From the sequence record SRR20825006_1198: DNA of 33,839 bases; one strand, written 5' to 3'. Position 1 is the first letter of the stretch; every line of letters begins with the position of its first letter. Made by a program: the position numbers and the translations under genes. This document shows, piece by piece, positions 31-21,022 of the stretch. The notes beneath the pieces were generated by a model. That model was not told where the DNA came from. It ran no database searches and saw only the letters and a list, made by a program, of their open reading frames with translations.

Positions 31-120
31 TGTACCGCGCCGTTTCAATTAGTTGATGAAATTACAACAAACAGATGATAGTTACATTTATTACTTGACG
101 CAGTTATGTTTCTTGGAGAT
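31..120 (+). repeat. Prophage end (tail side), putative transposase-binding region
   Basis: TGTA terminus; AATTACAACAAAC (60-72); GTTTCTTGGAGAT (108-120) matches GTTTCATGGACAT at the other end (11/13). Confidence 0.75.
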
Positions 121-125
121 ATACG

Positions 126-2045
126 TTAACTACTCAAATCAACAATGTTGCCGTTTAGTTTTTTAGCGTACAAGTAAGTATCCCCACCCGACGTTTGTAA
201 TTGGTAATTACTAGCTTTTAGTAGTACCTTTACACTCTTTCTATTGTTGTTAAATGGATACCAACCATGTAGATTAACACAGGTTTTTGTAGTGCCCGAG
301 ACTTGAGATTCCGAAATATTCGCCAAGTCAATTACAACCTCCGAGCTCGCAGTACCGCCACCATCTTCATCTTCGTAGCCTACAATACTTAGTTGCACTT
401 CGCAATCATCTAAATCAGCGGCCGACCTACCAAGCATTATTTTCGCACCAAATTCCAAATTCTTATCATTTACACCTTTGTTGAAGGTCATGGTAGCAAC
501 TTCGACTAACGAGCCTGTAAAGCTACTCTTACCAGTGGGATCTATAACTTTAGTAAACACCGTATTATCCAAATCCGTGGTGTCTGTAAGGTTTATTTGC
601 GCATTTTTAACGCCCACATTAGAACACCCAAACGCTCTTGCTAAAGCATGGCCTAATGTTTGATAACCCTCGCTTGAAGGGTGTACATCATCTACTATGT
701 TACTGCTCGGAAATTTGTCGGTAAGCGCTTCAACATCAAATATGCTTAATTCATTCTCTAACGCTAGTTCACGAAGGGCAGCGTTATACAAATAATTATT
801 TTCATAATCACTCGCCTCAGCGCCTCGTGGGTCAGTGCTTAGTATAATTAACGCATTAGCGTCATGGGTGTATATGTCGCTAATTAAAGCTTTATATTCC
901 GTTTTGAAGGTCGCAATATCAGAGACTCCATCCTTAGAGTCATTAGTACCATAGCCGATAAAAAATACATTTGCATCAAAAGCGGCGGCCTTAGCTAATT
1001 GAGCAGCAGTAGTAACACCACGATCAACATTTGCTGAAGATGAATTCTTAAGCGTCATTGAACTAACTGCATAATTCCTAAAATCTACCCCATAACCAAC
1101 GCTAAACCCTAGCACTACTAATGTGCCATCTGATGCCACACCAGAGCCTCTATCCACTAAGGTTAGATTGTCTAATTTCACCTGAAAATCACGGAGATTA
1201 GAGCCACCATCCACCAAACTAATTTGCTTAGCGACCACTATTCCTTTCACGTCCTCGGTAGATACTGCTCCAAAGCTTAGTTGGCCAGTGTAACTATCAA
1301 ATGTCTCTGTAGAAATTTCAGTGTCTTCATCATCATAAATCGTCACATCAAACTCAGGGGCCGCATCTGATGTGCGTTGTATAAAATAGACAGTAAGTAC
1401 AGGTTGAGTTTTGCCACCAACACGCACACTAAAATTTAAAGAGGGTGTTTCAGACGCAATCATTTTGTAATGCGGTAGTAATGAATCGCCTAGCGTTGTT
1501 GTAGATTTCTTTGCAGGCGTCACATCATACACTTCTTGCGACGGCTCTATAAAATTAGGGTCAGCAGTCATTAAAGCATGAGCGAGTAAACTTGCGTGGC
1601 TAAATTCGCCCATACGATTAGTTTCTGCATACGGCGAACTTGATCCTGGTCGGCCCGCCTCAGTAGAATCACCAAGAATAGCATATCGAACCCCTCCAGA
1701 TTGGATAAGGCCCCACATTTTCTGAACATCCTCATCTTTAATCTTATAGTAATTCTGCAACACTTTATTCGTAGGAATTGGCGTGCCATGATCTTGCCAT
1801 GCAGCACCATCCCAAATAACAAGCTGAAGATAAGAATTACCTTTAAAGTAATAGCTTACATCATCTTCTGAAGGTGAGCCTGTACTTGGCTTCGCTGTTA
1901 AGTCATCACTAGAGGCGCGCGGAAAATTAACCGGAGCTAATGCCGTTGCGTTGGCTATAGAGCTTTGTACTTGTGCATCGTTGGTTTCAAGAGCGTTTAC
2001 AACCGCTTCAAATGCTTCTTTCTTAATTACATCAAACTGTGCCAT
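126..2045 (-). CDS. Tail-associated SGNH/GDSL hydrolase (putative receptor-binding esterase/deacetylase)
   Basis: SGNH blocks ILGDS, GYGTND and DDVHPS; last gene of the tail module. Confidence 0.8.
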   Translation of the reverse strand: MAQFDVIKKEAFEAVVNALETNDAQVQSSIANATALAPVNFPRASSDDLTAKPSTGSPSEDDVSYYFKGNSYLQLVIWDGAAWQDHGTPIPTNKVLQNYYKIKDEDVQKMWGLIQSGGVRYAILGDSTEAGRPGSSSPYAETNRMGEFSHASLLAHALMTADPNFIEPSQEVYDVTPAKKSTTTLGDSLLPHYKMIASETPSLNFSVRVGGKTQPVLTVYFIQRTSDAAPEFDVTIYDDEDTEISTETFDSYTGQLSFGAVSTEDVKGIVVAKQISLVDGGSNLRDFQVKLDNLTLVDRGSGVASDGTLVVLGFSVGYGVDFRNYAVSSMTLKNSSSANVDRGVTTAAQLAKAAAFDANVFFIGYGTNDSKDGVSDIATFKTEYKALISDIYTHDANALIILSTDPRGAEASDYENNYLYNAALRELALENELSIFDVEALTDKFPSSNIVDDVHPSSEGYQTLGHALARAFGCSNVGVKNAQINLTDTTDLDNTVFTKVIDPTGKSSFTGSLVEVATMTFNKGVNDKNLEFGAKIMLGRSAADLDDCEVQLSIVGYEDEDGGGTASSEVVIDLANISESQVSGTTKTCVNLHGWYPFNNNRKSVKVLLKASNYQLQTSGGDTYLYAKKLNGNIVDLSS

Positions 2046-2303: not shown

Positions 2304-4385
2304 TTAGCTCATTACAAGGGTTTCGATTTCAAATACAATTCCTTCTATTTCAACAAACGCAGAAGAATCAGCAGCAGAGTTCACAGCGTCATCAAATACA
2401 AGGTCAAAGCCTCGGCCATCTTCACTAACAGTGCCTTTGGTAAAGCCATAAAGCACATCGCCTTGGTCTGTAATTACAGTCTCTGGGTCGATTGCTTGGT
2501 ATTCAGACTCGCTATAAAACTTTAAATTTGTGATGCCGGTTGTGTCAAAAACAGACTCAACGGAGTATACTTCTACTTCACCAGTTACCATGTTCCATTT
2601 ATACTCTACTGGAATAGAAAGCACGTCGGCATTGCCTGTTTCTTGCAATACGATTGTTTTTAGGAAATCTGGGAAAATGAATTTACGCGAGATGGCTGTT
2701 GTATATACAATAGAGTCTTTATTAGCCTGGCTAATTCTATCGTAAGGCGCACGGGTAAAAACAGAGCCTTCAATCGCATTATTGCTTATATAGTCAGCTG
2801 GCACCCAATCATCATTTGTGTCAAAATACTCAAAAACAAAAAGTGCGCCATAATCATCAACGTCGCCAGGGCAAAAACTTTGCTGTAGTGCGCTTGGATT
2901 TAGCAAACCGCGTGAATGGATATAGAATTTAGAGGACCTAGCAGTGTCATTTAATAGCTCGATGCTGCTACTTTTAATACTTAGGGAACATGAATTAACA
3001 AGCTCATCACCTAAACCAGTATCATGCAAGCGATACTCCACTTGGATGTAGCCCACCTTACCATAAGGAGCTTGAACATTGAGGCTATTGGTAATAGTAA
3101 CTAATGAGCCTTCGGGGATAATACGAGCAAATCTTGCATCGTCAGTGGTGTATTCATCCCACGTGGAATCATTATTGAGGATGTATACTAACCCGTCTAA
3201 ACTGTAGAATAAGCCTCTGAAGTAGTTGATAGAGTATACATCGCCAACCTCTGACACATCGGTGTCTACATCGAGATCTAAGGTGAACGAAATTTTTACC
3301 GTATCTAATTGGTCAGAGTTATTGGCAATGACTGTTTGTGAGCGCTGCTTTAACCAGCCTTCAGTAATAGAGTTATCTGGCGAGCGATGCAATTGAACAT
3401 ATTGCCCATCAACGTCGCCAGTTACTATTACAGAGCCTGTAGATTCTTCTTTATCCCATGCCGGGATAATATTTTGCAAGGGCTTACTTTGGGTCAAGTC
3501 GGCGTTTGTTAGAAATGTATCTGCAATTTTAACTACCGATTTTATCTCTCTAATACCGGGCTTAAAGTCCGCTTTAGGTTTTAACTCTACGAGATCAGAT
3601 GTAATTACTTGGCGAAAGTCTCTACTGCAGGCACTTGCAGCTACACCACTACTAAACACTACTCCATTTAAAGTAGCTGGTGCATTTAGGCGCATTTTAC
3701 GCTCAATAAAAACCCAACGTTGTTCTATCTGATAGAGCTGAAGATTGAATTGCTCACAAAAATTAACCAGAAGATCCCAATACGATAAACGATCGTTATC
3801 TGAGAATTTAGCCATGTAGCTTTGTTTAACTCTATAGCCAACAGGAAAGGTGCTAGCATTATCACTGCTCGCCCATAACGAATAAAACTCGATGCTACCA
3901 GGTAAGCCTAAACGATCAAAACAATCGATTAAGAATTGATCCAGTTCTATATATACATCAGCTGGGTTGAAATACTCCTCTTTCAGTAGTCCTAGAGCAT
4001 TTGTAGCCACAAGGCCAATTTCAGGATAACGCTCGTAATATTCTTTATTAGAAGATGGTAGATACAAAAATAACTCCCATTCGAGAGTTGCATCATTATA
4101 AATCTGAAGCTTAAAGTCTTTCTTGGAACGGCCATCAAACCGAGCTAACAAGCCATGTAAATCTTTAATGGTAAATTGAATTTGTACAGGCCAGAATGGG
4201 AAGAACATGTCATTACCGCGACTACCCATAATTAACATTGGATCGCCTTTAATGCCTATTTCGGTAACAGTATCTGGAGTTTCCGCAAATTGTTCAAGAA
4301 TTTTAAACGTACGGGTTTCAGAGCTACCTGCTGCAGTAGCGTTACGCATTAATATATCTTCCTGGGCAATTAGCGTGTAACTCAT
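2304..4385 (-). CDS. Putative tail tip/hub protein
   Basis: 693 aa, beta-rich, directly after the tape measure gene with ATGA overlap. Confidence 0.65.
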   Translation of the reverse strand: MSYTLIAQEDILMRNATAAGSSETRTFKILEQFAETPDTVTEIGIKGDPMLIMGSRGNDMFFPFWPVQIQFTIKDLHGLLARFDGRSKKDFKLQIYNDATLEWELFLYLPSSNKEYYERYPEIGLVATNALGLLKEEYFNPADVYIELDQFLIDCFDRLGLPGSIEFYSLWASSDNASTFPVGYRVKQSYMAKFSDNDRLSYWDLLVNFCEQFNLQLYQIEQRWVFIERKMRLNAPATLNGVVFSSGVAASACSRDFRQVITSDLVELKPKADFKPGIREIKSVVKIADTFLTNADLTQSKPLQNIIPAWDKEESTGSVIVTGDVDGQYVQLHRSPDNSITEGWLKQRSQTVIANNSDQLDTVKISFTLDLDVDTDVSEVGDVYSINYFRGLFYSLDGLVYILNNDSTWDEYTTDDARFARIIPEGSLVTITNSLNVQAPYGKVGYIQVEYRLHDTGLGDELVNSCSLSIKSSSIELLNDTARSSKFYIHSRGLLNPSALQQSFCPGDVDDYGALFVFEYFDTNDDWVPADYISNNAIEGSVFTRAPYDRISQANKDSIVYTTAISRKFIFPDFLKTIVLQETGNADVLSIPVEYKWNMVTGEVEVYSVESVFDTTGITNLKFYSESEYQAIDPETVITDQGDVLYGFTKGTVSEDGRGFDLVFDDAVNSAADSSAFVEIEGIVFEIETLVMS

Positions 4386-7036
4386 ACCTGGTTGCCTACA
4401 ACATCTTTATTAGCGTTGTATTTTTTCATGCCTTCAATTACTTCAGCTATAATTACAGGCGCTCTTAACTCAACTTTCTTCATGGCTTCGCCTACAGCTT
4501 CAGCAATAATGTCGCTCTGAATGCCTCCACCGCCTAAAGTTGGGAGATCAATATTTACATTGGGTGCAGAAATCATTCCACCGCGTTCCATGTATGGCAG
4601 ACCAGAAAGCAAGCGAGATGCAAAGGCAGGATCTTCATTAATCTGGCGAATTAGTGGTAGACCGCGGCGTGTGCTTTCACGATTGATGATATATTCACCT
4701 TTCTCGGCTTCAATTAGCGTACCACCTTGACTGTGGCGTTTCCCGCCAATCATTCCACCGTCTTCAAAAGAGGAAATTAATGCTCTAGCTGATTTTATAG
4801 CAACTGCAGCTAGAATTGGCGACATAATAAGTGCAGCAGGACCAGACGCACCTGCGGTTTGTAGTGCATTACGCACCCATAATGAAATGATTTGAGTGGC
4901 AACAGCGTCTAAAGCGCCTTTTGCAATGTCCTTAAATGAATCGGCATAAAGTATATTTTGAGCAACAGCCTGGCCTACTGATCCCGCTACTTGCTTCCAG
5001 TCGGTTTTTTGGGAGTCTGCATTATTTTTACTCGCGCCAGCCACAATATCCATTTGCTGGAGAATTTCCTGAAGCTCAGTCATTGTGCTTGCATGCTTCG
5101 CTCGCTCAGCTTCGCTACTAGATTCTAGGTAAGCTTTTTCGCTAAGAGCAATGGCTTGTTTTATGCCTTTAATGCTATCTTGCCCGAAAACCTGTTCAGT
5201 TTGTTTATTTTTTTCTAGCGCATATTTCTCAGTAATGGCATTCATTTCAGCCTGTAATTCAACCATACGGGCATTATGCATAGCGCGAGCTCGCTCATCA
5301 GTGGCAGTATCAAACTCTTTTTTGCTCTCAGCCAACTCTGCTTGTAAACCGGCTAGGCTTCTAAGATCGTTTATTTGTGTTGCAGAACCGCCTTTACCAC
5401 CCGTTTCTTCTTGGGCTTTTTTGGCTGCTTTTACTTTAGCAATATAGTCTTCAAATGAAATAGAACCATCTTCAAGAGCTTGTGTGTACTCTTTAAGGCT
5501 GGATTCATTAGTGGAGATTGTAAGATTCAAACCCTCTAGTTCTTCAGAAAGGCGAGCAATAGCTTCAAGCCTATCTTCGCCCGGTCCTGGTAAATAGTCT
5601 AACCAGTTTACAGATTCCTTAAGCCCTGCGATTTGCTCTTTTATAGCATCTCTGCTGGCTTTAGCGGCGTGGGTATCATCATATAAAGCACTGGCTCTTT
5701 TTTTAAGGTGTGAGGTCGTTTCTGCGTAGGCTGTACGAAGTTCTTTTTGTTGAGCTAGAGTTAGGTTCCCACTAATAGCAGCTTGCGCTAGTTCTTCGCG
5801 AAGCGCCTTCATAGAACGGATTTGAGAGTCCGTTTCGGTAGCTCCTAGTCCAAGCTCTTTTCTGAGATCTGAATGAGCATCAAGCCATTGGTTAATTACA
5901 GCAATTCCACCAGCAAATTGTTCAATTAACCCTGCCACATTATCAATTAGAATGACCATTACGCCATTACTCTCTTGGAAAGCAGGAATAAGAGCTGAGT
6001 CAATCACAGACTGCAGGCGATCAGTAGCGCCTTCAAAAGTGTCCATTTGTACGGCGGCCTGCTCATAGGCTACATTACTGCCCGTTACTTTTTCAGTCAG
6101 TGATTCTACAGAATCAGCTTGAGTAATCAGGATTTGAGCGGCGTTAAAGGCTTCCTCTCCAAACAGCTCTTTCATAGCTGCAGCGTCTTCAACAATAGGC
6201 GTGAGTTGTTGTAAGGTTTTAGCCAAGCCATTGGCTTTAATGTCTACATTTTCAATGCCAAGCTTGGCAAGTGTTTCACCAGAAGTTTGTAGACGAAGGA
6301 AGATAGCTCGCAATGCGGTACCGGCACGCTCACCATTTTGCCCGTTAGCTGCTAAAACCTGAATAGCGGCGTTGGTCATCTCGATAGATTGATTCGCGCC
6401 TGCAGCAGCCGATCCGGCGTTTACCATCGCTTGGCCAATTGCTGGAATTTCTGCAGCTCCGAATTTTGCACCAGCTGCCAAGGTGTTAATTACGCGGGCA
6501 CTTTCATCCGCTGAAAGATTAAACTGGTTAATAATGGAAGTGGTAGTGTTAACGGCATCAGACAAAGAAGTGCCGGCAGCCTTGGAAAGAATGATGGCTT
6601 GCTCAGAAACTTTTTGGAGTGATTGAAATCCTGCTTCCGTGCCAAAATCAATTTTCTCAGCCAATACAGAAGCAACCAATTTGTTCGCTTCAATAATGTT
6701 AGAGGCACTTGTACCGTAAATTTTAGAGAGATCCAGGGAGCGCTTACCCAACCGATCAAGTTGAGTGCCAGTGATCCCGGTTATAGCTTCCAGGCTGGCA
6801 AGCTGAGTTTCAAACTCTTTGCCTTTTTCTATAGAACGAGCCATCGCTTTTTGCAGAACTAAGCCAATGCCTCCGGCTGCGGCAAGTCTACCAACATTGT
6901 CCAGGCTAAGTAAGCCTTTCTTAACGCTGGGCATTTTCTTGCCTAATCCATCTAACCCATCTTCTGCCTTTTTCCAGCCAGTAACTGCGCCTGTGGAGTC
7001 TACGTCTACATAATATGTTACAGTGCGCTTAGCCAT
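4382..7036 (-). CDS. Tail tape measure protein (TP901 / PhageMin_Tail type)
   Basis: Ala-rich helical 884 aa; core motifs GERAGTALRAIF and LFGEEA; C-terminal FEDGG...HSQGG...EKGEYIIN motif. Confidence 0.92.
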   Translation of the reverse strand: MAKRTVTYYVDVDSTGAVTGWKKAEDGLDGLGKKMPSVKKGLLSLDNVGRLAAAGGIGLVLQKAMARSIEKGKEFETQLASLEAITGITGTQLDRLGKRSLDLSKIYGTSASNIIEANKLVASVLAEKIDFGTEAGFQSLQKVSEQAIILSKAAGTSLSDAVNTTTSIINQFNLSADESARVINTLAAGAKFGAAEIPAIGQAMVNAGSAAAGANQSIEMTNAAIQVLAANGQNGERAGTALRAIFLRLQTSGETLAKLGIENVDIKANGLAKTLQQLTPIVEDAAAMKELFGEEAFNAAQILITQADSVESLTEKVTGSNVAYEQAAVQMDTFEGATDRLQSVIDSALIPAFQESNGVMVILIDNVAGLIEQFAGGIAVINQWLDAHSDLRKELGLGATETDSQIRSMKALREELAQAAISGNLTLAQQKELRTAYAETTSHLKKRASALYDDTHAAKASRDAIKEQIAGLKESVNWLDYLPGPGEDRLEAIARLSEELEGLNLTISTNESSLKEYTQALEDGSISFEDYIAKVKAAKKAQEETGGKGGSATQINDLRSLAGLQAELAESKKEFDTATDERARAMHNARMVELQAEMNAITEKYALEKNKQTEQVFGQDSIKGIKQAIALSEKAYLESSSEAERAKHASTMTELQEILQQMDIVAGASKNNADSQKTDWKQVAGSVGQAVAQNILYADSFKDIAKGALDAVATQIISLWVRNALQTAGASGPAALIMSPILAAVAIKSARALISSFEDGGMIGGKRHSQGGTLIEAEKGEYIINRESTRRGLPLIRQINEDPAFASRLLSGLPYMERGGMISAPNVNIDLPTLGGGGIQSDIIAEAVGEAMKKVELRAPVIIAEVIEGMKKYNANKDVVGNQV

Positions 7037-12502: not shown

Positions 12503-13042
12503 CTAGGTTCGTCTGTTTTCAACCAATGCAGCACCTCTAGGAGGGGCACCTGCATTTTTAGGGAGGTAGACGCTCCAGGTAAGGGTATTTTTTGGGTTGC
12601 CAGATTGGCCATCAAAGTGTAACCGAACCCAAATAGTGCCTTTAAATTCGATAATGGCGACACCGCCAATCGTGCTTAGTGTATCTATAGTGGTTCCAGA
12701 TCCTAATGCATCTTTTACTGGAGTGGAAATTGCCGTCCAACTTAATCGGTCCTGGCTAAACTCCGCATAAACATTAATATCTTCCGTTCCCGCTACATTG
12801 GGAAGCGTTAGCTGCAGTAAACCTATACTTTGATTAGCCTCGCCTAGTAGCAATGCTTGGGTGTAATGGCTTGCAATGGAATCTCCATCAGCAGTCATAT
12901 CAACGTTACCGGAATAACGCACATAAGAGGCACCTTCAGTGGGTGCTGCAGTAGTGTTGTAGGTTTGCGCAATCGCACTACTAAATAGAGCCGTAAGCAG
13001 CATCACAAAGAACGTCAAGAATGTATTTTTGAAACTTTTCAT
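12503..13042 (-). CDS. Beta-sandwich protein with a Sec signal peptide
   Basis: MKSFKNTFLTFFVMLLTALFSSAIA|QTY: basic N-region, hydrophobic core, A-I-A cleavage site. Confidence 0.8.
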   Translation of the reverse strand: MKSFKNTFLTFFVMLLTALFSSAIAQTYNTTAAPTEGASYVRYSGNVDMTADGDSIASHYTQALLLGEANQSIGLLQLTLPNVAGTEDINVYAEFSQDRLSWTAISTPVKDALGSGTTIDTLSTIGGVAIIEFKGTIWVRLHFDGQSGNPKNTLTWSVYLPKNAGAPPRGAALVENRRT

Positions 13043-14120: not shown

Positions 14121-15194
14121 CTAGGAAAGGATTCCTAGAGGCGCTTTTGGATTGCTCTTTTGCACTTCCTCTTCGCCTGCGTCATCACCTGACTGGCGAG
14201 CTGGTGCCGCTTTCTCAAGCGATGCCACTTTCTCAGTAAGCGCAGTAATGCTAGCGCCAGTAGTCTTCATGAATTCCTTCATGGTTTCCTCTAGCGTAGG
14301 TTCAGTGTTTTCTGCGGCCTTTTTCGCTTCTTCTTTTTCAGCAAGAGCTTTGGCGGCAGCTTCATCAGCTTTTTTGGTTTCTTCTGTAGTCATTTCGCTT
14401 TCTTTTTTTGTTGGGGTTCCGCCAAACTCAAGTTTGGAGATGTAGGCTGAAAACTGACTTACCGCGTTGGTAATAGCCGCTTTCTTATCTGTGATTTCAG
14501 AATCGTTAAGTACGGAGGTAAACTCTTCCTCCAGCGCCCATACACTTTGGCGCATTTCTTTAGCACTGATTCGTGCATTAAAATCTTTCTCAATAGCTTC
14601 GTCAGCTGTAGAAGGATTGTTTTTAAATATCTTTTTCAGAGTGTCGCTAAACTTGGTCATAATTAATTCGATTGTTTTTTCAAGTGAATCTTCGTCTTCC
14701 ACTACCTCAGTATTCGCCTTCCCTGCTAGTGATATACCCTTTAACTCGCCATTCTTTACCGCTTCCCATGTGTCAGGATCAGTAACTTTAATAACCACAG
14801 CCCAAGCGCCTTCTTTTTCGCCTGGGAACTTAGAATCGCTTTTGCCAAGGATGTAACTTTCCACAACCACGCCGTCGTCTGGCATGTTATCGTGCTGGGT
14901 GTCTACATTTGAAGTGCGGGCTTTAGTTAAGAAGTGGTGAGCGGCCTTCTTTAACTCATCAATAGCCATAGCATCGCCGTAAGTGTCAGCTTCCTCGGGT
15001 GCATATACAATGCCGTAAACAAGCTGCTCTTCCTCAACTACCTTGTGGATTTGAATTTGGGCGTTAAAATCCGGGCTGAATCCTTCAATTGCCCTGTACA
15101 CGAACTCCCGGCGATTAGCCGCATCGTTAACCAGGCTAATGAATTGAACATCAACGTTCTTTAAATATCGTTTGATTTGGGGTTTTTTGGACAT
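14121..15194 (-). CDS. XkdF-like prohead protease with C-terminal scaffold
   Basis: ISLVNDAAN, LVYGIVYAPE..DTYGD, DTQH, VESY and GELKGISLAG motifs; charged helical C-terminus. Confidence 0.88.
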   Translation of the reverse strand: MSKKPQIKRYLKNVDVQFISLVNDAANRREFVYRAIEGFSPDFNAQIQIHKVVEEEQLVYGIVYAPEEADTYGDAMAIDELKKAAHHFLTKARTSNVDTQHDNMPDDGVVVESYILGKSDSKFPGEKEGAWAVVIKVTDPDTWEAVKNGELKGISLAGKANTEVVEDEDSLEKTIELIMTKFSDTLKKIFKNNPSTADEAIEKDFNARISAKEMRQSVWALEEEFTSVLNDSEITDKKAAITNAVSQFSAYISKLEFGGTPTKKESEMTTEETKKADEAAAKALAEKEEAKKAAENTEPTLEETMKEFMKTTGASITALTEKVASLEKAAPARQSGDDAGEEEVQKSNPKAPLGILS

Positions 15195-15216
15195 CCTTTG
15201 TGCATTTGTTTACACA

Positions 15217-15254
15217 AAGGTCGTTACCTGCGCAGTAGCATAACAGGTTAAGAA
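15217..15254 (-). promoter_or_regulatory. Late promoter / activator-binding site, copy 1 (upstream of protease-capsid genes)
   Basis: 38-bp ungapped match to 20685-20722 with an identical 19-bp core TTCTTAACCTGTTATGCTA. Confidence 0.75.
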
Positions 15255-15260
15255 TGATGA

Positions 15261-16913
15261 CTATTCTATAATTGTAGGAAGGAGAGGTTGACCTTTAGGT
15301 GAGATTCTATTTTGAAAACGATCTATACGAGCCATCATTAATTCACGCTCTTCACCTTTTAACTCTTTCAGAGTTTGGCGCAGCTTCTCCCTTTCGGTTA
15401 CCGCTTGCTTAAATGATATGCGTTTAGATTTTTCCAATATTTCTTCGAATCCTGTTTGCTTTAGATAAATATACCATTTGTTTTTCACTTTTTCACTTTT
15501 CATCACATCGAAGAATGTACCTGGTCTAAATAGGAACTCTTCTTCTTTAGGAACATCAGACAGATGCTTAATTCCAATGCCATTGCCTTCAAAAATAAAC
15601 TCAGCTGAGCCAACAAAAGGAATATTTCCTGAAGTAGAAGCAAAACCGGGCCATTGTATTTTTTTAGCTGATGTATAGGCTTTAATCTGAGCGGCAGTTA
15701 AATCAGCACCTCGAAAAAAAGTACCCTTAGTGGGTTTTATTTTCGCCAAACCCGCATCTATTACACCAGCGTATGACTTCTCAAAGGGTGTTAATTTAAG
15801 GTTGTTATACATATTATAATTCACACCAAAATGAAGATGTTTAGTATAACCCCATATCGATACATTCTCATCAAATCGTAAACGACGGTCTACTGGCGCA
15901 TCATCACCAAGCTTACGATACTCATCATAAATCTTTTTATACTCGGTATTTTGGTGAAGCTGCTTTACATTTTTTTCATAGGCGACTTGCTGTTCTATAG
16001 CAGCGGCAGAAGCTTTTACTGTTCGAGATCTGCAATTGAAATGATAGGGCGGCAGGCTCATTCCTGAAGGCAACGACTTAGAAGGCTTCGCTGCCATCTT
16101 ATCAGGCTTCATCCAGGGCGCAATTGCTTTTACTTCTTCCGGTGTTTTTGCAGCAATTAGTTGGTCGCGTAGCTCAACCGCTTTCTTAACACTAATTACG
16201 CGGTTGTGCATGTGGCGGCAAATCTCAGTAGTACGCCGATCTACTACTGCTTTAACTTGTAACCAATCAATTCCAGCACGTACATATCGCTCGGTATTAC
16301 CAAACTCACGCGAGCGAGTTACCACGTGGTTAGAGAAGCCTTGCCAGTAGCGCCAGCTCAAGCTGTTGTACTTCTTAGCAAATTCATCTTCAAAAAGCTT
16401 ACCAGCTTCAGCACGGCCTAAACCTTCTGTAATGATCTTAGTACCAAATTCAGTTACTTTTTCCTGCAGCTGATTCTCGAAGAAATGTTTTACCCAGTAA
16501 ACATTATGTTCCTGCAGGTAGCGGATTGCTTTAGTGTCTATTACATTGAACGAGGGCTTAATACCTACTTTACCCGCTAACCCAGTGGCGTAGGTGTTTA
16601 GTATTATCTCATCGATATTAGCAGCTATATCGCCCGCAAACTTATCGCCAAGCAAAACGCGAAGCGAGCTCACCATCTCATCTAGATCATTTTGAGTAAA
16701 GAGATCCAAGCTATCAGAACGATTAGCCAGGGCACGGATTACATTATCGATCGATTCTTTTTCGGCAGCGTTCCAGCCATGCAGCAGTACATCTTGAAGC
16801 TCTGCCGCTAGCTTATCAAACGGATCGCCTTTTATCACCGCTTCTAACTTGCGGATCTCTACCAAAAACTTACGCCTGGCAAACACGGTTGCTTTTTGAA
16901 TGGTGTTAATCAT
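15261..16913 (-). CDS. MuF (SPP1 gp7-like) minor head protein fused to an ADP-ribosyltransferase toxin domain
   Basis: MuF motifs DRRTTEIC and PPYHFNCRS; ART R-S-E motifs FFRG, FASTS and EEEFLF. Start placed at ATG 16913 (TAATG coupling) rather than 16955. Confidence 0.88.
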   Translation of the reverse strand: MINTIQKATVFARRKFLVEIRKLEAVIKGDPFDKLAAELQDVLLHGWNAAEKESIDNVIRALANRSDSLDLFTQNDLDEMVSSLRVLLGDKFAGDIAANIDEIILNTYATGLAGKVGIKPSFNVIDTKAIRYLQEHNVYWVKHFFENQLQEKVTEFGTKIITEGLGRAEAGKLFEDEFAKKYNSLSWRYWQGFSNHVVTRSREFGNTERYVRAGIDWLQVKAVVDRRTTEICRHMHNRVISVKKAVELRDQLIAAKTPEEVKAIAPWMKPDKMAAKPSKSLPSGMSLPPYHFNCRSRTVKASAAAIEQQVAYEKNVKQLHQNTEYKKIYDEYRKLGDDAPVDRRLRFDENVSIWGYTKHLHFGVNYNMYNNLKLTPFEKSYAGVIDAGLAKIKPTKGTFFRGADLTAAQIKAYTSAKKIQWPGFASTSGNIPFVGSAEFIFEGNGIGIKHLSDVPKEEEFLFRPGTFFDVMKSEKVKNKWYIYLKQTGFEEILEKSKRISFKQAVTEREKLRQTLKELKGEERELMMARIDRFQNRISPKGQPLLPTIIE

Positions 16914-17257
16914 TAGGTATTTGGCTTTTTTAATTCGCCTTGAACTAGCTTCCAAACACCAGGGGTTAAAATTGTTTTACCGGCGGAGGTAAATATTAGC
17001 ATTGATGCACAAATCTCTTTTAGATTGTTAGCATATCGGTATGTACTGATTTCCACACCTTTCTTGGAAAGCTCTAATTGCCAATACTCACTGTTATAAT
17101 AATAAGCTTCAATCTTCCAATCGCCCGCTACAAGATTAAAGTTTACCTCGTCTTTTTTTGCATCACCTTTGAAGTACAATTGAAGTAATATCCAAATCGC
17201 TCGGAATATTGATTCTATATCAGCTAATGATTTACTATTAATTTCGTCTTTACCCAT
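16913..17257 (-). CDS. Hypothetical AT-rich protein coupled to MuF-ART; candidate immunity protein
   Basis: 114 aa; its stop overlaps the MuF start (TAATG); inserted between portal and MuF. Confidence 0.6.
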   Translation of the reverse strand: MGKDEINSKSLADIESIFRAIWILLQLYFKGDAKKDEVNFNLVAGDWKIEAYYYNSEYWQLELSKKGVEISTYRYANNLKEICASMLIFTSAGKTILTPGVWKLVQGELKKPNT

Positions 17258-20684: not shown

Positions 20685-20722
20685 AAGGTAGATTCCTGCT
20701 GTATAGCATAACAGGTTAAGAA
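20685..20722 (-). promoter_or_regulatory. Late promoter / activator-binding site, copy 2 (upstream of terS)
   Basis: Repeat of 15217-15254; includes a TACCTT -10-like hexamer. Confidence 0.75.
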
Positions 20723-20728
20723 CAGTGA

Positions 20729-21022
20729 CTAATTAAGGATACCAGCTTTGATTTTTGCGAAAAAGAATTCGCAGTACTCGCAGGTAATTTTAAGGAATTT
20801 ACCAAGCTTAATGCGCTGCCCTTCGTAATTACTCCAGCGCTCTTCAGTAGCCCAAAGCCCACGATCAAAGGTGTCTTTCTGTTTGTTCGTTAAATCTTGC
20901 TTGTAATGTTTTTGTAATTGGGTAAGTAGCTCATTAATCAATATGCTTTTGTAGCGGTCTTTCCCGTTATCTAGTGCTTTTTGGTGGGCGTTTTGCACTA
21001 TTATTCTTACTGCAGCTTCCAT
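20729..21022 (-). CDS. Hypothetical protein
   Basis: 97-aa ORF in operon orientation. Confidence 0.6.
   Translation of the reverse strand: MEAAVRIIVQNAHQKALDNGKDRYKSILINELLTQLQKHYKQDLTNKQKDTFDRGLWATEERWSNYEGQRIKLGKFLKITCEYCEFFFAKIKAGILN

Follow-up and report, generated by a model that had tools for sequence, protein, structure and literature searches.

A MuF-fused, Tre1-like ADP-ribosyltransferase of a Mu-like prophage with a clade-specific C-terminal tail as a candidate cis-acting mask

How might a phage carry a toxin through the assembly of its own head when no immunity gene follows the toxin gene? The question is raised by a gene on a 33,839-nucleotide (nt) stretch of the sequence record SRR20825006_1198, which was analysed as a whole and is called the window below. 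The gene (15261..16913, minus strand) encodes a protein of 550 residues plus a stop codon, P0001, in which an N-terminal MuF domain is followed by a Tre1-like ADP-ribosyltransferase (ART) domain and a 55-residue tail. An earlier note on this DNA, made from the letters alone, had proposed that the tail is an inhibitor in cis, removed inside the head by the prohead protease so that the toxin is armed only in mature virions. We tentatively favour a version of this proposal, in which the tail would be a cis-acting mask that the prohead protease cleaves, and set out below the evidence that carries it and the alternatives that compete with it.

The open reading frame (ORF) extends over 15261..16955 on the minus strand, with the TAG stop codon at 15263-15261; the ATG at 16913 is the likely start, as it matches the starts of the homologues P0002 and P0003. 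On the same strand, residues 1-300 (16014..16913) form a MuF, or SPP1 gp7-like, minor head domain; residues 310-487 (15453..15986) form the R-S-E ART domain; residues 488-500 (15414..15452) are a flexible linker; residues 501-537 (15303..15413) are predicted to form a helical hairpin; and residues 538-550 (15264..15302) make up the C-terminal end. The ART motifs are FFRG at residues 399-402 (R401 at nt 15713-15711), STS at 426-428 (nt 15638-15630) and EEE at 457-459 (nt 15545-15537). ILEKS occupies residues 492-496 (LEKS at nt 15437-15426), and the tail comprises residues 496-550. The earlier note had read the protein in the same way, as an R-S-E ART on a MuF protein that continues through ILEK-S into a helical extension of about 55 residues, and had cautioned that FEKS also occurs within the ART domain; the motifs align one-to-one with those of Tre1, 55 residues do follow K495 with two helices in both AlphaFold2 models described below, and FEKS is found at residues 377-380. 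HFNCR (291-295) and TVKAS (298-302) lie at the end of the MuF domain.

The MuF part was recognised through profile and PHROG matches. Its scores for PF04233 (21.4 bits, cut-off 29.6; E 4e-4) and TIGR01641 (33.4 bits, cut-off 39.65; E 5e-8) were below threshold, and it matched the head families PHROG 595 (E 1.3e-16) and PHROG 115 (E 3e-11). A PPxH..C motif at the domain end is typical of the MuF family, and P288, H291 and C294 were invariant in 42/42 aligned relatives. We read the protein, from its sequence, as a divergent member of this family. The gene adjoins the portal gene in the head module, with one 114-residue ORF between them. A homologue search returned 41 proteins, of which P0002, P0003, P0004 and P0008 share the whole architecture at 70-43% identity; the remaining homologues have the MuF part in common and different C-termini. 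At least four other C-termini occur among relatives that are 35-56% identical over the aligned part, for the most part the MuF domain; these include a module of about 250 residues (P0010, P0019), a shorter module (P0022, P0026) and an HExxH module (P0041). A constant MuF domain with varied C-termini in relatives is the pattern of MuF polymorphic toxins (PMC5576092, PMC3482391; papers given by PMC number are cited throughout for parts of their text), and a repressor and Mu-type genes in the window place it here in a temperate phage. Searched with the whole protein, the phage genome collection INPHARED yielded 41 matching records, all through the MuF part only and at no more than 32% identity among the 20 listed.

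Two side observations concern these other C-termini. The HExxH module of P0041 (669 residues) gave a weak, below-threshold match to the anthrax lethal factor-type family PF07737 (E 0.095) and would be another cargo type in this phage group. P0005 (383 residues) and P0007 (409 residues) keep the first two helices of the ART N-terminal lobe, up to R-F-D-E-N-V (51 residues, 63% identity), after which comes a short tail of unrelated sequence; this suggests a recombination junction near residue 350 or loss of the ART.

The ART domain looks active. Its best solved relative by sequence was Tre1 of Serratia proteamaculans (6DRH/6DRE; phmmer against the Protein Data Bank (PDB), E 7e-10), with R401, S426-T-S428 and E457-x-E459 in register with the Tre1 residues. 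Scanned alone, the domain reached 22.5 bits for PF01129, whose cut-off is 22.3. From 52 sequences, AlphaFold2 modelled residues 310-550 with a mean predicted local distance difference test score (pLDDT) of 93.8 and a predicted template modelling score (pTM) of 0.89, the ART domain itself standing at pLDDT 94-98. The best fold match of the ART core in VIA-align was again Tre1 (6drh_F; Z 18.1, root-mean-square deviation 2.4 Å, 173 residues aligned, 25% identity), followed by HopU1 (Z 16.8), ExoS (Z 16.2), XopAI and ART2.2. Among the full-length members of the clade that bears the tail, the arginine and S-T/S-S were kept in 5/5 and E-x-E in 4/5, with D-x-E in P0008. Across the 52 sequences S426 and E459 (S117 and E150 of the 310-550 piece) were invariant and R401 (R92) nearly so. 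It is because the catalytic residues are intact that the enzyme appears to be active from its sequence, and a degenerate, inactive ART was rejected as an explanation on the same ground.

No immunity gene lies where one would be expected. Of 191 MuF toxin genes, 89.4% have a small ORF after them; for 952 short MuF genes the share is 25.5% (PMC5576092). In the window, no small ORF (<150 residues) was found directly downstream: a gap of 66 nt is followed by a gene of 357 residues encoding a protease-scaffold fusion, so that there is no room for a downstream immunity gene. The earlier note had placed the stop codon 6 bp from a recurring repeat and drawn the same conclusion; 6 nt do separate the stop codon from a 19-nt core (15254-15236), and an identical 19-mer recurs before the small terminase gene (20722-20704). 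In L001, a related Balneola prophage, no small downstream ORF was present either, a 76-nt gap leading to a protease gene of 354 residues. Among the 40 window proteins scanned with Pfam, all from ORFs of 90 residues or more, none matched the ADP_ribosyl_GH or Macro families. The absence of an immunity gene holds for the downstream side only, since the 114-residue ORF stands upstream; it is taken up below.

The tail, by comparison, is confined to a narrow group of proteins. Residues 310-550 were searched against 1.84 billion representatives, which gave 261 matches at E <= 1e-3, 150 of them listed. In most of the 150 listed matches the aligned part stops at the last core strand, somewhere from query position 160 to 186, and many of the matched proteins themselves end within a few residues of that point. 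Five of the 150 pass position 190: P0002, P0008 and P0145, the last a 148-residue fragment, do so with tail-like sequence, and P0071 and P0091, both signal-peptide proteins, with unrelated continuations. With P0001, P0003 and P0004 the tail bearers number six, and the tail appears to be specific to this six-member clade among the listed matches; in an alignment it was conserved in 6/6 members. Searches for further tail-bearing loci gave one weak, core-only match in viral contigs and five core-only matches in metagenome contigs, and tblastn of the ART and tail against INPHARED gave no match. Many entries of the structure database BFVD are named MuF-ART, but their template modelling scores normalised to the query were at most 0.58 and covered the core only.

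Within the clade, tail identity to P0002, P0003, P0004 and P0008 was 36, 31, 18 and 16%, compared with 69, 52, 40 and 36% for the ART domain and 78, 75, 61 and 47% for the MuF domain, so the tail seems to evolve faster than the ART. Its net charge ranges from +5 to -8 among members. What is kept is a hydrophobic stripe and a turn, L518-x-(G/P)-x-E522-(R/K), in which L518 and E522 are invariant in 5/5 sequences. Helices at residues 501-517 and 520-537 were predicted in both AlphaFold2 models, at pLDDT of about 95 in the model of ART and tail and 88-92 in the model of the full-length protein (pTM 0.82). In the latter, pLDDT fell below 50 only at residues 490-496, which read EEILEKS, and at residues 543-550; in the former, the linker block 490-499 stood at pLDDT 74. 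Taken together, the confident helices and the low-scoring segment 490-496 indicate in these models a hairpin that would form one compact body with the ART while hanging on a flexible tether. No solved equivalent covering the helices was found with Foldseek in the PDB, with VIA-align among 997 chains and 48,161 representatives, or in BFVD. When the ART core (residues 1-182 of the 241-residue piece) and the tail (187-241) were co-predicted with nicotinamide adenine dinucleotide (NAD), run without alignments or controls, the interaction prediction score from aligned errors (ipSAE) was 0.00 in both runs, a value that speaks neither for nor against contact.

The tether holds the candidate cleavage site. 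K495/S496 falls within residues 490-496, the one internal stretch where the full-length model drops under pLDDT 50. Lysine occupies the site column in 5/6 members, or in 6/6 if a shift of one residue is allowed; at the position after the putative cut (P1'), three members have S, A or T and three have M. Conservation of the site, which the earlier note had named as a check, is borne out for the lysine and not for P1'. The candidate processing enzyme is encoded by the next gene, an XkdF-type prohead protease of 357 residues fused to the scaffold (14121..15194, minus; PF14550, Peptidase_S78_2, E 1.5e-31; PHROG 3017, E 6.5e-52). Similar motifs occur in the proteins that such an enzyme would meet: the scaffolds of 4/4 related phages share an invariant [LV]-E-K-A-[AS] close to their C-terminus, K14-A15 at the capsid N-terminus is invariant in 3/3, and the two closest phages have D-S-L-E-K-[TS] behind the protease domain. 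From their sequences, the scaffold, capsid and K495/S496 sites are reasonable candidate sites for an XkdF-type protease. A second point of release for the ART, TVK-A just after HFNCR, had also been suggested in the earlier note; it was rejected, as it lies in a predicted strand (residues 296-300, in blocks of pLDDT 85 and 95) and reads TVT or TVV in P0004 and P0008.

On this basis a sequence of events can be proposed. The MuF domain would take the protein into the procapsid at the portal, and the Tre1-like, arginine-type mono-ART would be the cargo, entering the next host cell with the DNA and modifying one or more host proteins there. By analogy with the family, packaging through MuF and delivery with the DNA are highly probable, and this is the accepted hypothesis for the MuF family (PMC5576092, PMC5512222, PMC10083569). 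The tail hairpin would fold back on the ART through the disordered tether as an immunity-like module fused in cis, and would mask the enzyme in the producing cell, where a downstream immunity gene is absent. The tether would be cut at or near K495/S496, most simply by the co-assembled XkdF-type prohead protease, and mask and enzyme would part when the protein unfolds for ejection. It is conceivable, if doubtful, that the tail descends from an immunity gene joined in frame to its toxin, that it keeps the enzyme masked until the protease cuts the tether in the capsid, and that the enzyme is active only in the next cell.

A mask of this kind has parallels among immunity proteins. Insertion of a helix is an immunity mode for Tre1-type ARTs, through residues 27-33 of Tri1 and 80-86 of TriX (PMC11606950), and Bsi is a small active-site binder of the MuF-ART Bxa (PMC11699363). 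Fusion of a downstream small ORF appears, from the reading frames, to have a precedent in the same MuF family. At L003 (3908-5702) a MuF-X protein of 458 residues is followed by a separate ORF of 113 residues, with stop codons in both frames, and at L037 (3001-4674) a single protein of 557 residues, P0010, is 42% identical to that 113-residue ORF over its residues 436-549; the 113-residue module belongs to no known family. In 3/6 members of the tail-bearing clade, moreover, the conserved Lys is immediately followed by a Met that opens the tail, which is what a leftover start codon would look like. The cis-acting mask is favoured because the tail is restricted to a clade without a downstream immunity gene and diverges quickly, and because the tether is disordered with a conserved Lys, fusion has the L003/L037 precedent and the Met resembles a relic start. 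The earlier proposal of a cis-inhibitor removed by the protease is in this sense partly supported, through the architecture, the missing downstream ORF, the conserved tail and the site in the disordered tether, with TVK-A falling away.

Several observations weigh against a cis-acting mask. When hydrophobicity was compared by column between the six tail-bearing and 46 tail-less sequences, the gains were mostly scattered over the N-terminal helical lobe, the part of the alignment that can be trusted least, and were not clearly at the catalytic loops or the last two strands. Among active ARTs, a structural alignment reaching beyond model residue 190 was obtained for Vis alone (157 residues aligned, range 32..241, known by its ends only); anthrax lethal factor, through its ART-like domain, was also aligned to residue 241 by the same measure. 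The Vis range hints at a Vis-like placement of the tail in the model. At the candidate site, P1' is M and not a small residue in 3/6 members, and the pattern [LIVMF]-x-K-[STAM] occurs five times in the protein. DNA around a tail-bearing MuF-ART comes from two loci, the window and L001. In the related ARTs Vis, ExoS and TreX, the segments after the last strand are stabilisers away from the active site (PMC6141617, PMC11606950). Immunity may be unnecessary for a prophage gene in the late operon, and lytic Microbacterium phages have MuF-ART fusions as well (PMC7302621). A slight chance that the upstream ORF supplies immunity has to be added to these points.

The observations on Vis, ExoS and TreX lead directly to the strongest alternative, which we regard as possible without being persuaded by it: the tail would be a built-in stabiliser, or intramolecular chaperone, that covers an aggregation-prone ART surface and aids refolding after ejection, the enzyme being active with its tail in place. 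Immunity would then be unneeded, as expression would occur only late in a doomed cell, and the gene does lie in a late operon behind a conserved control repeat. ExoS and ExoT need 14-3-3, whose helices alpha8 and alpha9 cover a hydrophobic face of beta4, beta7 and beta8, and residues 218-249 of Vis put in place of the ExoS C-terminus give an active enzyme independent of 14-3-3 (PMC6141617). TreX depends for its solubility on a C-terminal tail, which binds TrxA at a distance from the active site (PMC11606950). That the one active ART to align into the tail region was Vis fits this picture, as does a conserved hydrophobic stripe with variable charge, which would suit packing and not a specific contact with the catalytic site. 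Yet most of the 150 listed ART relatives have no such tail, and on the last two strands the outward-facing residues of tail bearers show no gain in hydrophobicity over tail-less relatives, F467 excepted. A stabiliser also leaves the disordered tether and its conserved Lys unexplained, as well as the need of prophage head-module MuF-ARTs such as Bxa for immunity proteins (PMC11699363).

A role in assembly or targeting is improbable. Here the tail would bind the scaffold, the capsid interior, the portal or DNA, position the cargo and perhaps be trimmed by the protease. Capsid-targeting sequences are trimmed by the prohead protease in T4, and the P22 scaffold has a C-terminal helix-turn-helix domain that binds coat protein; the tail is a helix-turn-helix that follows a flexible tether at the very C-terminus and runs out into a disordered peptide. 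The ends of the scaffold and of the MuF-ART tail are, in addition, alike within each phage, a comparison that covers two phages only: both have P-K..P-L in the window (14124-14153 and 15264-15302) and N-P..S-F-L in L001. This likeness may reflect a shared docking peptide or may be chance, the motif being short. AlphaFold2, however, puts the hairpin in one compact body with the ART (pTM 0.89 and 0.82) and not on a free arm, the MuF domain already gives targeting, the charge of the tail is not conserved, and non-ART MuF relatives in sister phages are without this tail.

The remaining candidate is the ORF upstream. This orphan ORF of 114 residues (16913..17257, minus) lies between the portal and MuF genes, and its stop codon overlaps the MuF start (TAATG). 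It has a low GC content (0.32-0.36), as has the ART and tail cassette (0.33-0.40), and both are lower than the MuF part and neighbouring head genes (0.42-0.49). No relatives were found in Pfam, PHROGs, NCBIfam, or metagenome or genome contigs, and its best ESM Atlas score was 0.77. The same slot holds an orphan ORF of 106 residues in L001 (3675-3995), without BLASTP similarity to the window ORF although the two ARTs are 52% identical, and in the non-ART phage L004 an unrelated ORF of 113 residues (3648-3989) with a HEFAH metallopeptidase-like (HExxH) motif. With a different small ORF in each of three phages, the slot looks like a general variable (moron) insertion point. Immunity in trans from this ORF, translationally coupled to the MuF-ART and leaving the tail some other role, would fit the overlapping codons, the shared low GC content and the occupied slot in L001, but is very unlikely given the unrelated occupants of the slot, the lack of any family or relative, and the downstream position that immunity genes of polymorphic toxins normally have.

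The window covers the late and the early genes of a Mu-like transposable prophage. Profile scans identified a Mu-like module with GemA, DUF3164, a protein combining AAA_22 and a helix-turn-helix, a CI-type repressor, terminase, portal and XkdF protease; CII/CI-type regulators are also encoded, and the AAA_22 protein is read as MuB-like from its position. The head module on the minus strand runs in the order small terminase (TerS), large terminase (TerL), portal, 114-residue ORF, MuF-ART, protease-scaffold, capsid and tail genes, and L001 has the same order. TerS matched HTH_23/Phage_terminase, the portal PF04860 (E 9e-26) and the major capsid protein PHROG 1623 (E 2e-52). The closest homologues of the MuF-ART protein come from metagenome-assembled genomes of Balneola, and the source is taken to be a Mu-like prophage of a marine Balneola-type bacterium. 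As a separate observation, a protein of 179 residues encoded directly after the major capsid gene (12503-13042), and conserved in L001 and L004, seems to have a signal or hydrophobic segment at its N-terminus; an exported-looking protein is unusual at this position.

The repeat next to the stop codon is a putative control element of the late operon. It spans 47 nt from the stop codon (15217..15263, minus; 19-nt core at 15236-15254), and a second copy (20685..20731, minus; core at 20704-20722) lies upstream of the small terminase gene; the two 47-nt copies are 79% identical. The 19-mer has two matches against 0.02 expected, a number reached in 0/100 shuffles. The core of the repeat, TCTTAACCTGTT, stands at 4/4 operon starts in the two phages, the L001 copies being at 285-298 and 5677-5690. 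The AACCTG of the core pairs with a downstream CAGGT/CGGGTT-like arm at variable spacing and forms the 5' arm of a hairpin, and instead of a simple promoter the core could act as a dyad operator or as an RNA hairpin. Phage Mu has a late promoter between gene F and the protease/scaffold gene that comes next, and the present layout seems to resemble it. A further, stable hairpin, CCTTTGTG...CACAAAGG (15191-15224, minus), ends at, or extends over, the protease-scaffold start codon, with a folding energy z-score of -3.76; L001 has a hairpin with changed arms at the same place (5707-5738; z -2.2). This start-codon hairpin may control translation of the head operon.

Among known systems, the closest likeness is to Bxa of the Bacteroides stercoris prophage PhiBxa, which also has an N-terminal MuF domain and a C-terminal arginine-type ART, is encoded in a prophage head-morphogenesis module, and has relatives whose MuF domain carries other toxins (PMC11699363). 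Bxa, however, has 869 residues with a middle domain, ends with its ART, and is accompanied by two adjacent immunity genes, for the active-site binder Bsi and for the ADP-ribosylhydrolase BAH (PMC11699363), whereas the present locus has neither a downstream small ORF nor a hydrolase among the scanned window proteins and adds the 55-residue hairpin after the ART. With the MuF polymorphic toxins, including EFV of Enterococcus faecalis, it shares a temperate-phage MuF domain and a variable C-terminal toxin (PMC5576092, PMC3482391); ARTs make up 14% of 191 such toxins, and delivery with the injected DNA has been proposed for them (PMC5576092). It departs from them in lacking the defining downstream small ORF and in that the portal and muf genes are not immediate neighbours. 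Tre1, the closest solved ART relative, has the same R / S-T-S / E-x-E residues but is carried on a PAAR protein, is delivered through a type VI secretion system and ends at the last core strand. It is blocked in trans by a helix of Tri1, and its effect is reversed by the Tri1 hydrolase domain. In T4, internal head proteins are processed by the prohead protease; Alt of T4 has no MuF domain and belongs to a different ART subfamily, and we know of no evidence that processing activates it. Alt, mentioned in PMC5512222, is nonetheless an ART carried in the head and delivered with the DNA, as is proposed here. Vis, ExoS/ExoT and TreX have an extra segment after the last R-S-E ART strand that binds back (Vis) or recruits a chaperone (14-3-3, TrxA); compared with the tail described here these segments are shorter or bind a partner in trans, and promote activity, and none is a two-helix hairpin behind a disordered tether.

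MuF-ART fusions as such are already known from EFV, Bxa and the Microbacterium phages Percival, Goodman and Johann (PMC7302621). What appears to be new is a Tre1-type ART on the MuF protein of a Mu-like Balneola phage, with no downstream immunity ORF and with a conserved hairpin predicted behind a disordered tether. In the open-access full text searched, we found no MuF toxin for which a C-terminal tail inhibiting it in cis is described. MuF-fused toxins are widespread and their biology is largely unexplored; to our knowledge Apk2 and Bxa are the only ones studied, and both need separate immunity proteins. A clade without a downstream immunity gene but with a conserved tail is a small system that bears on how toxins are stored harmlessly during assembly, and on whether the proteolysis of capsid maturation can arm enzymes carried as cargo. 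If the tail is a stabiliser, it would be an equivalent in cis of the chaperoning of ExoS and TreX by 14-3-3 and thioredoxin, and would bear on the refolding of ejected proteins. If it provides immunity in cis, it would be a new answer to the problem of self-intoxication by phage-delivered polymorphic toxins, and the capsid maturation protease would gain a second job, the arming of a toxin.

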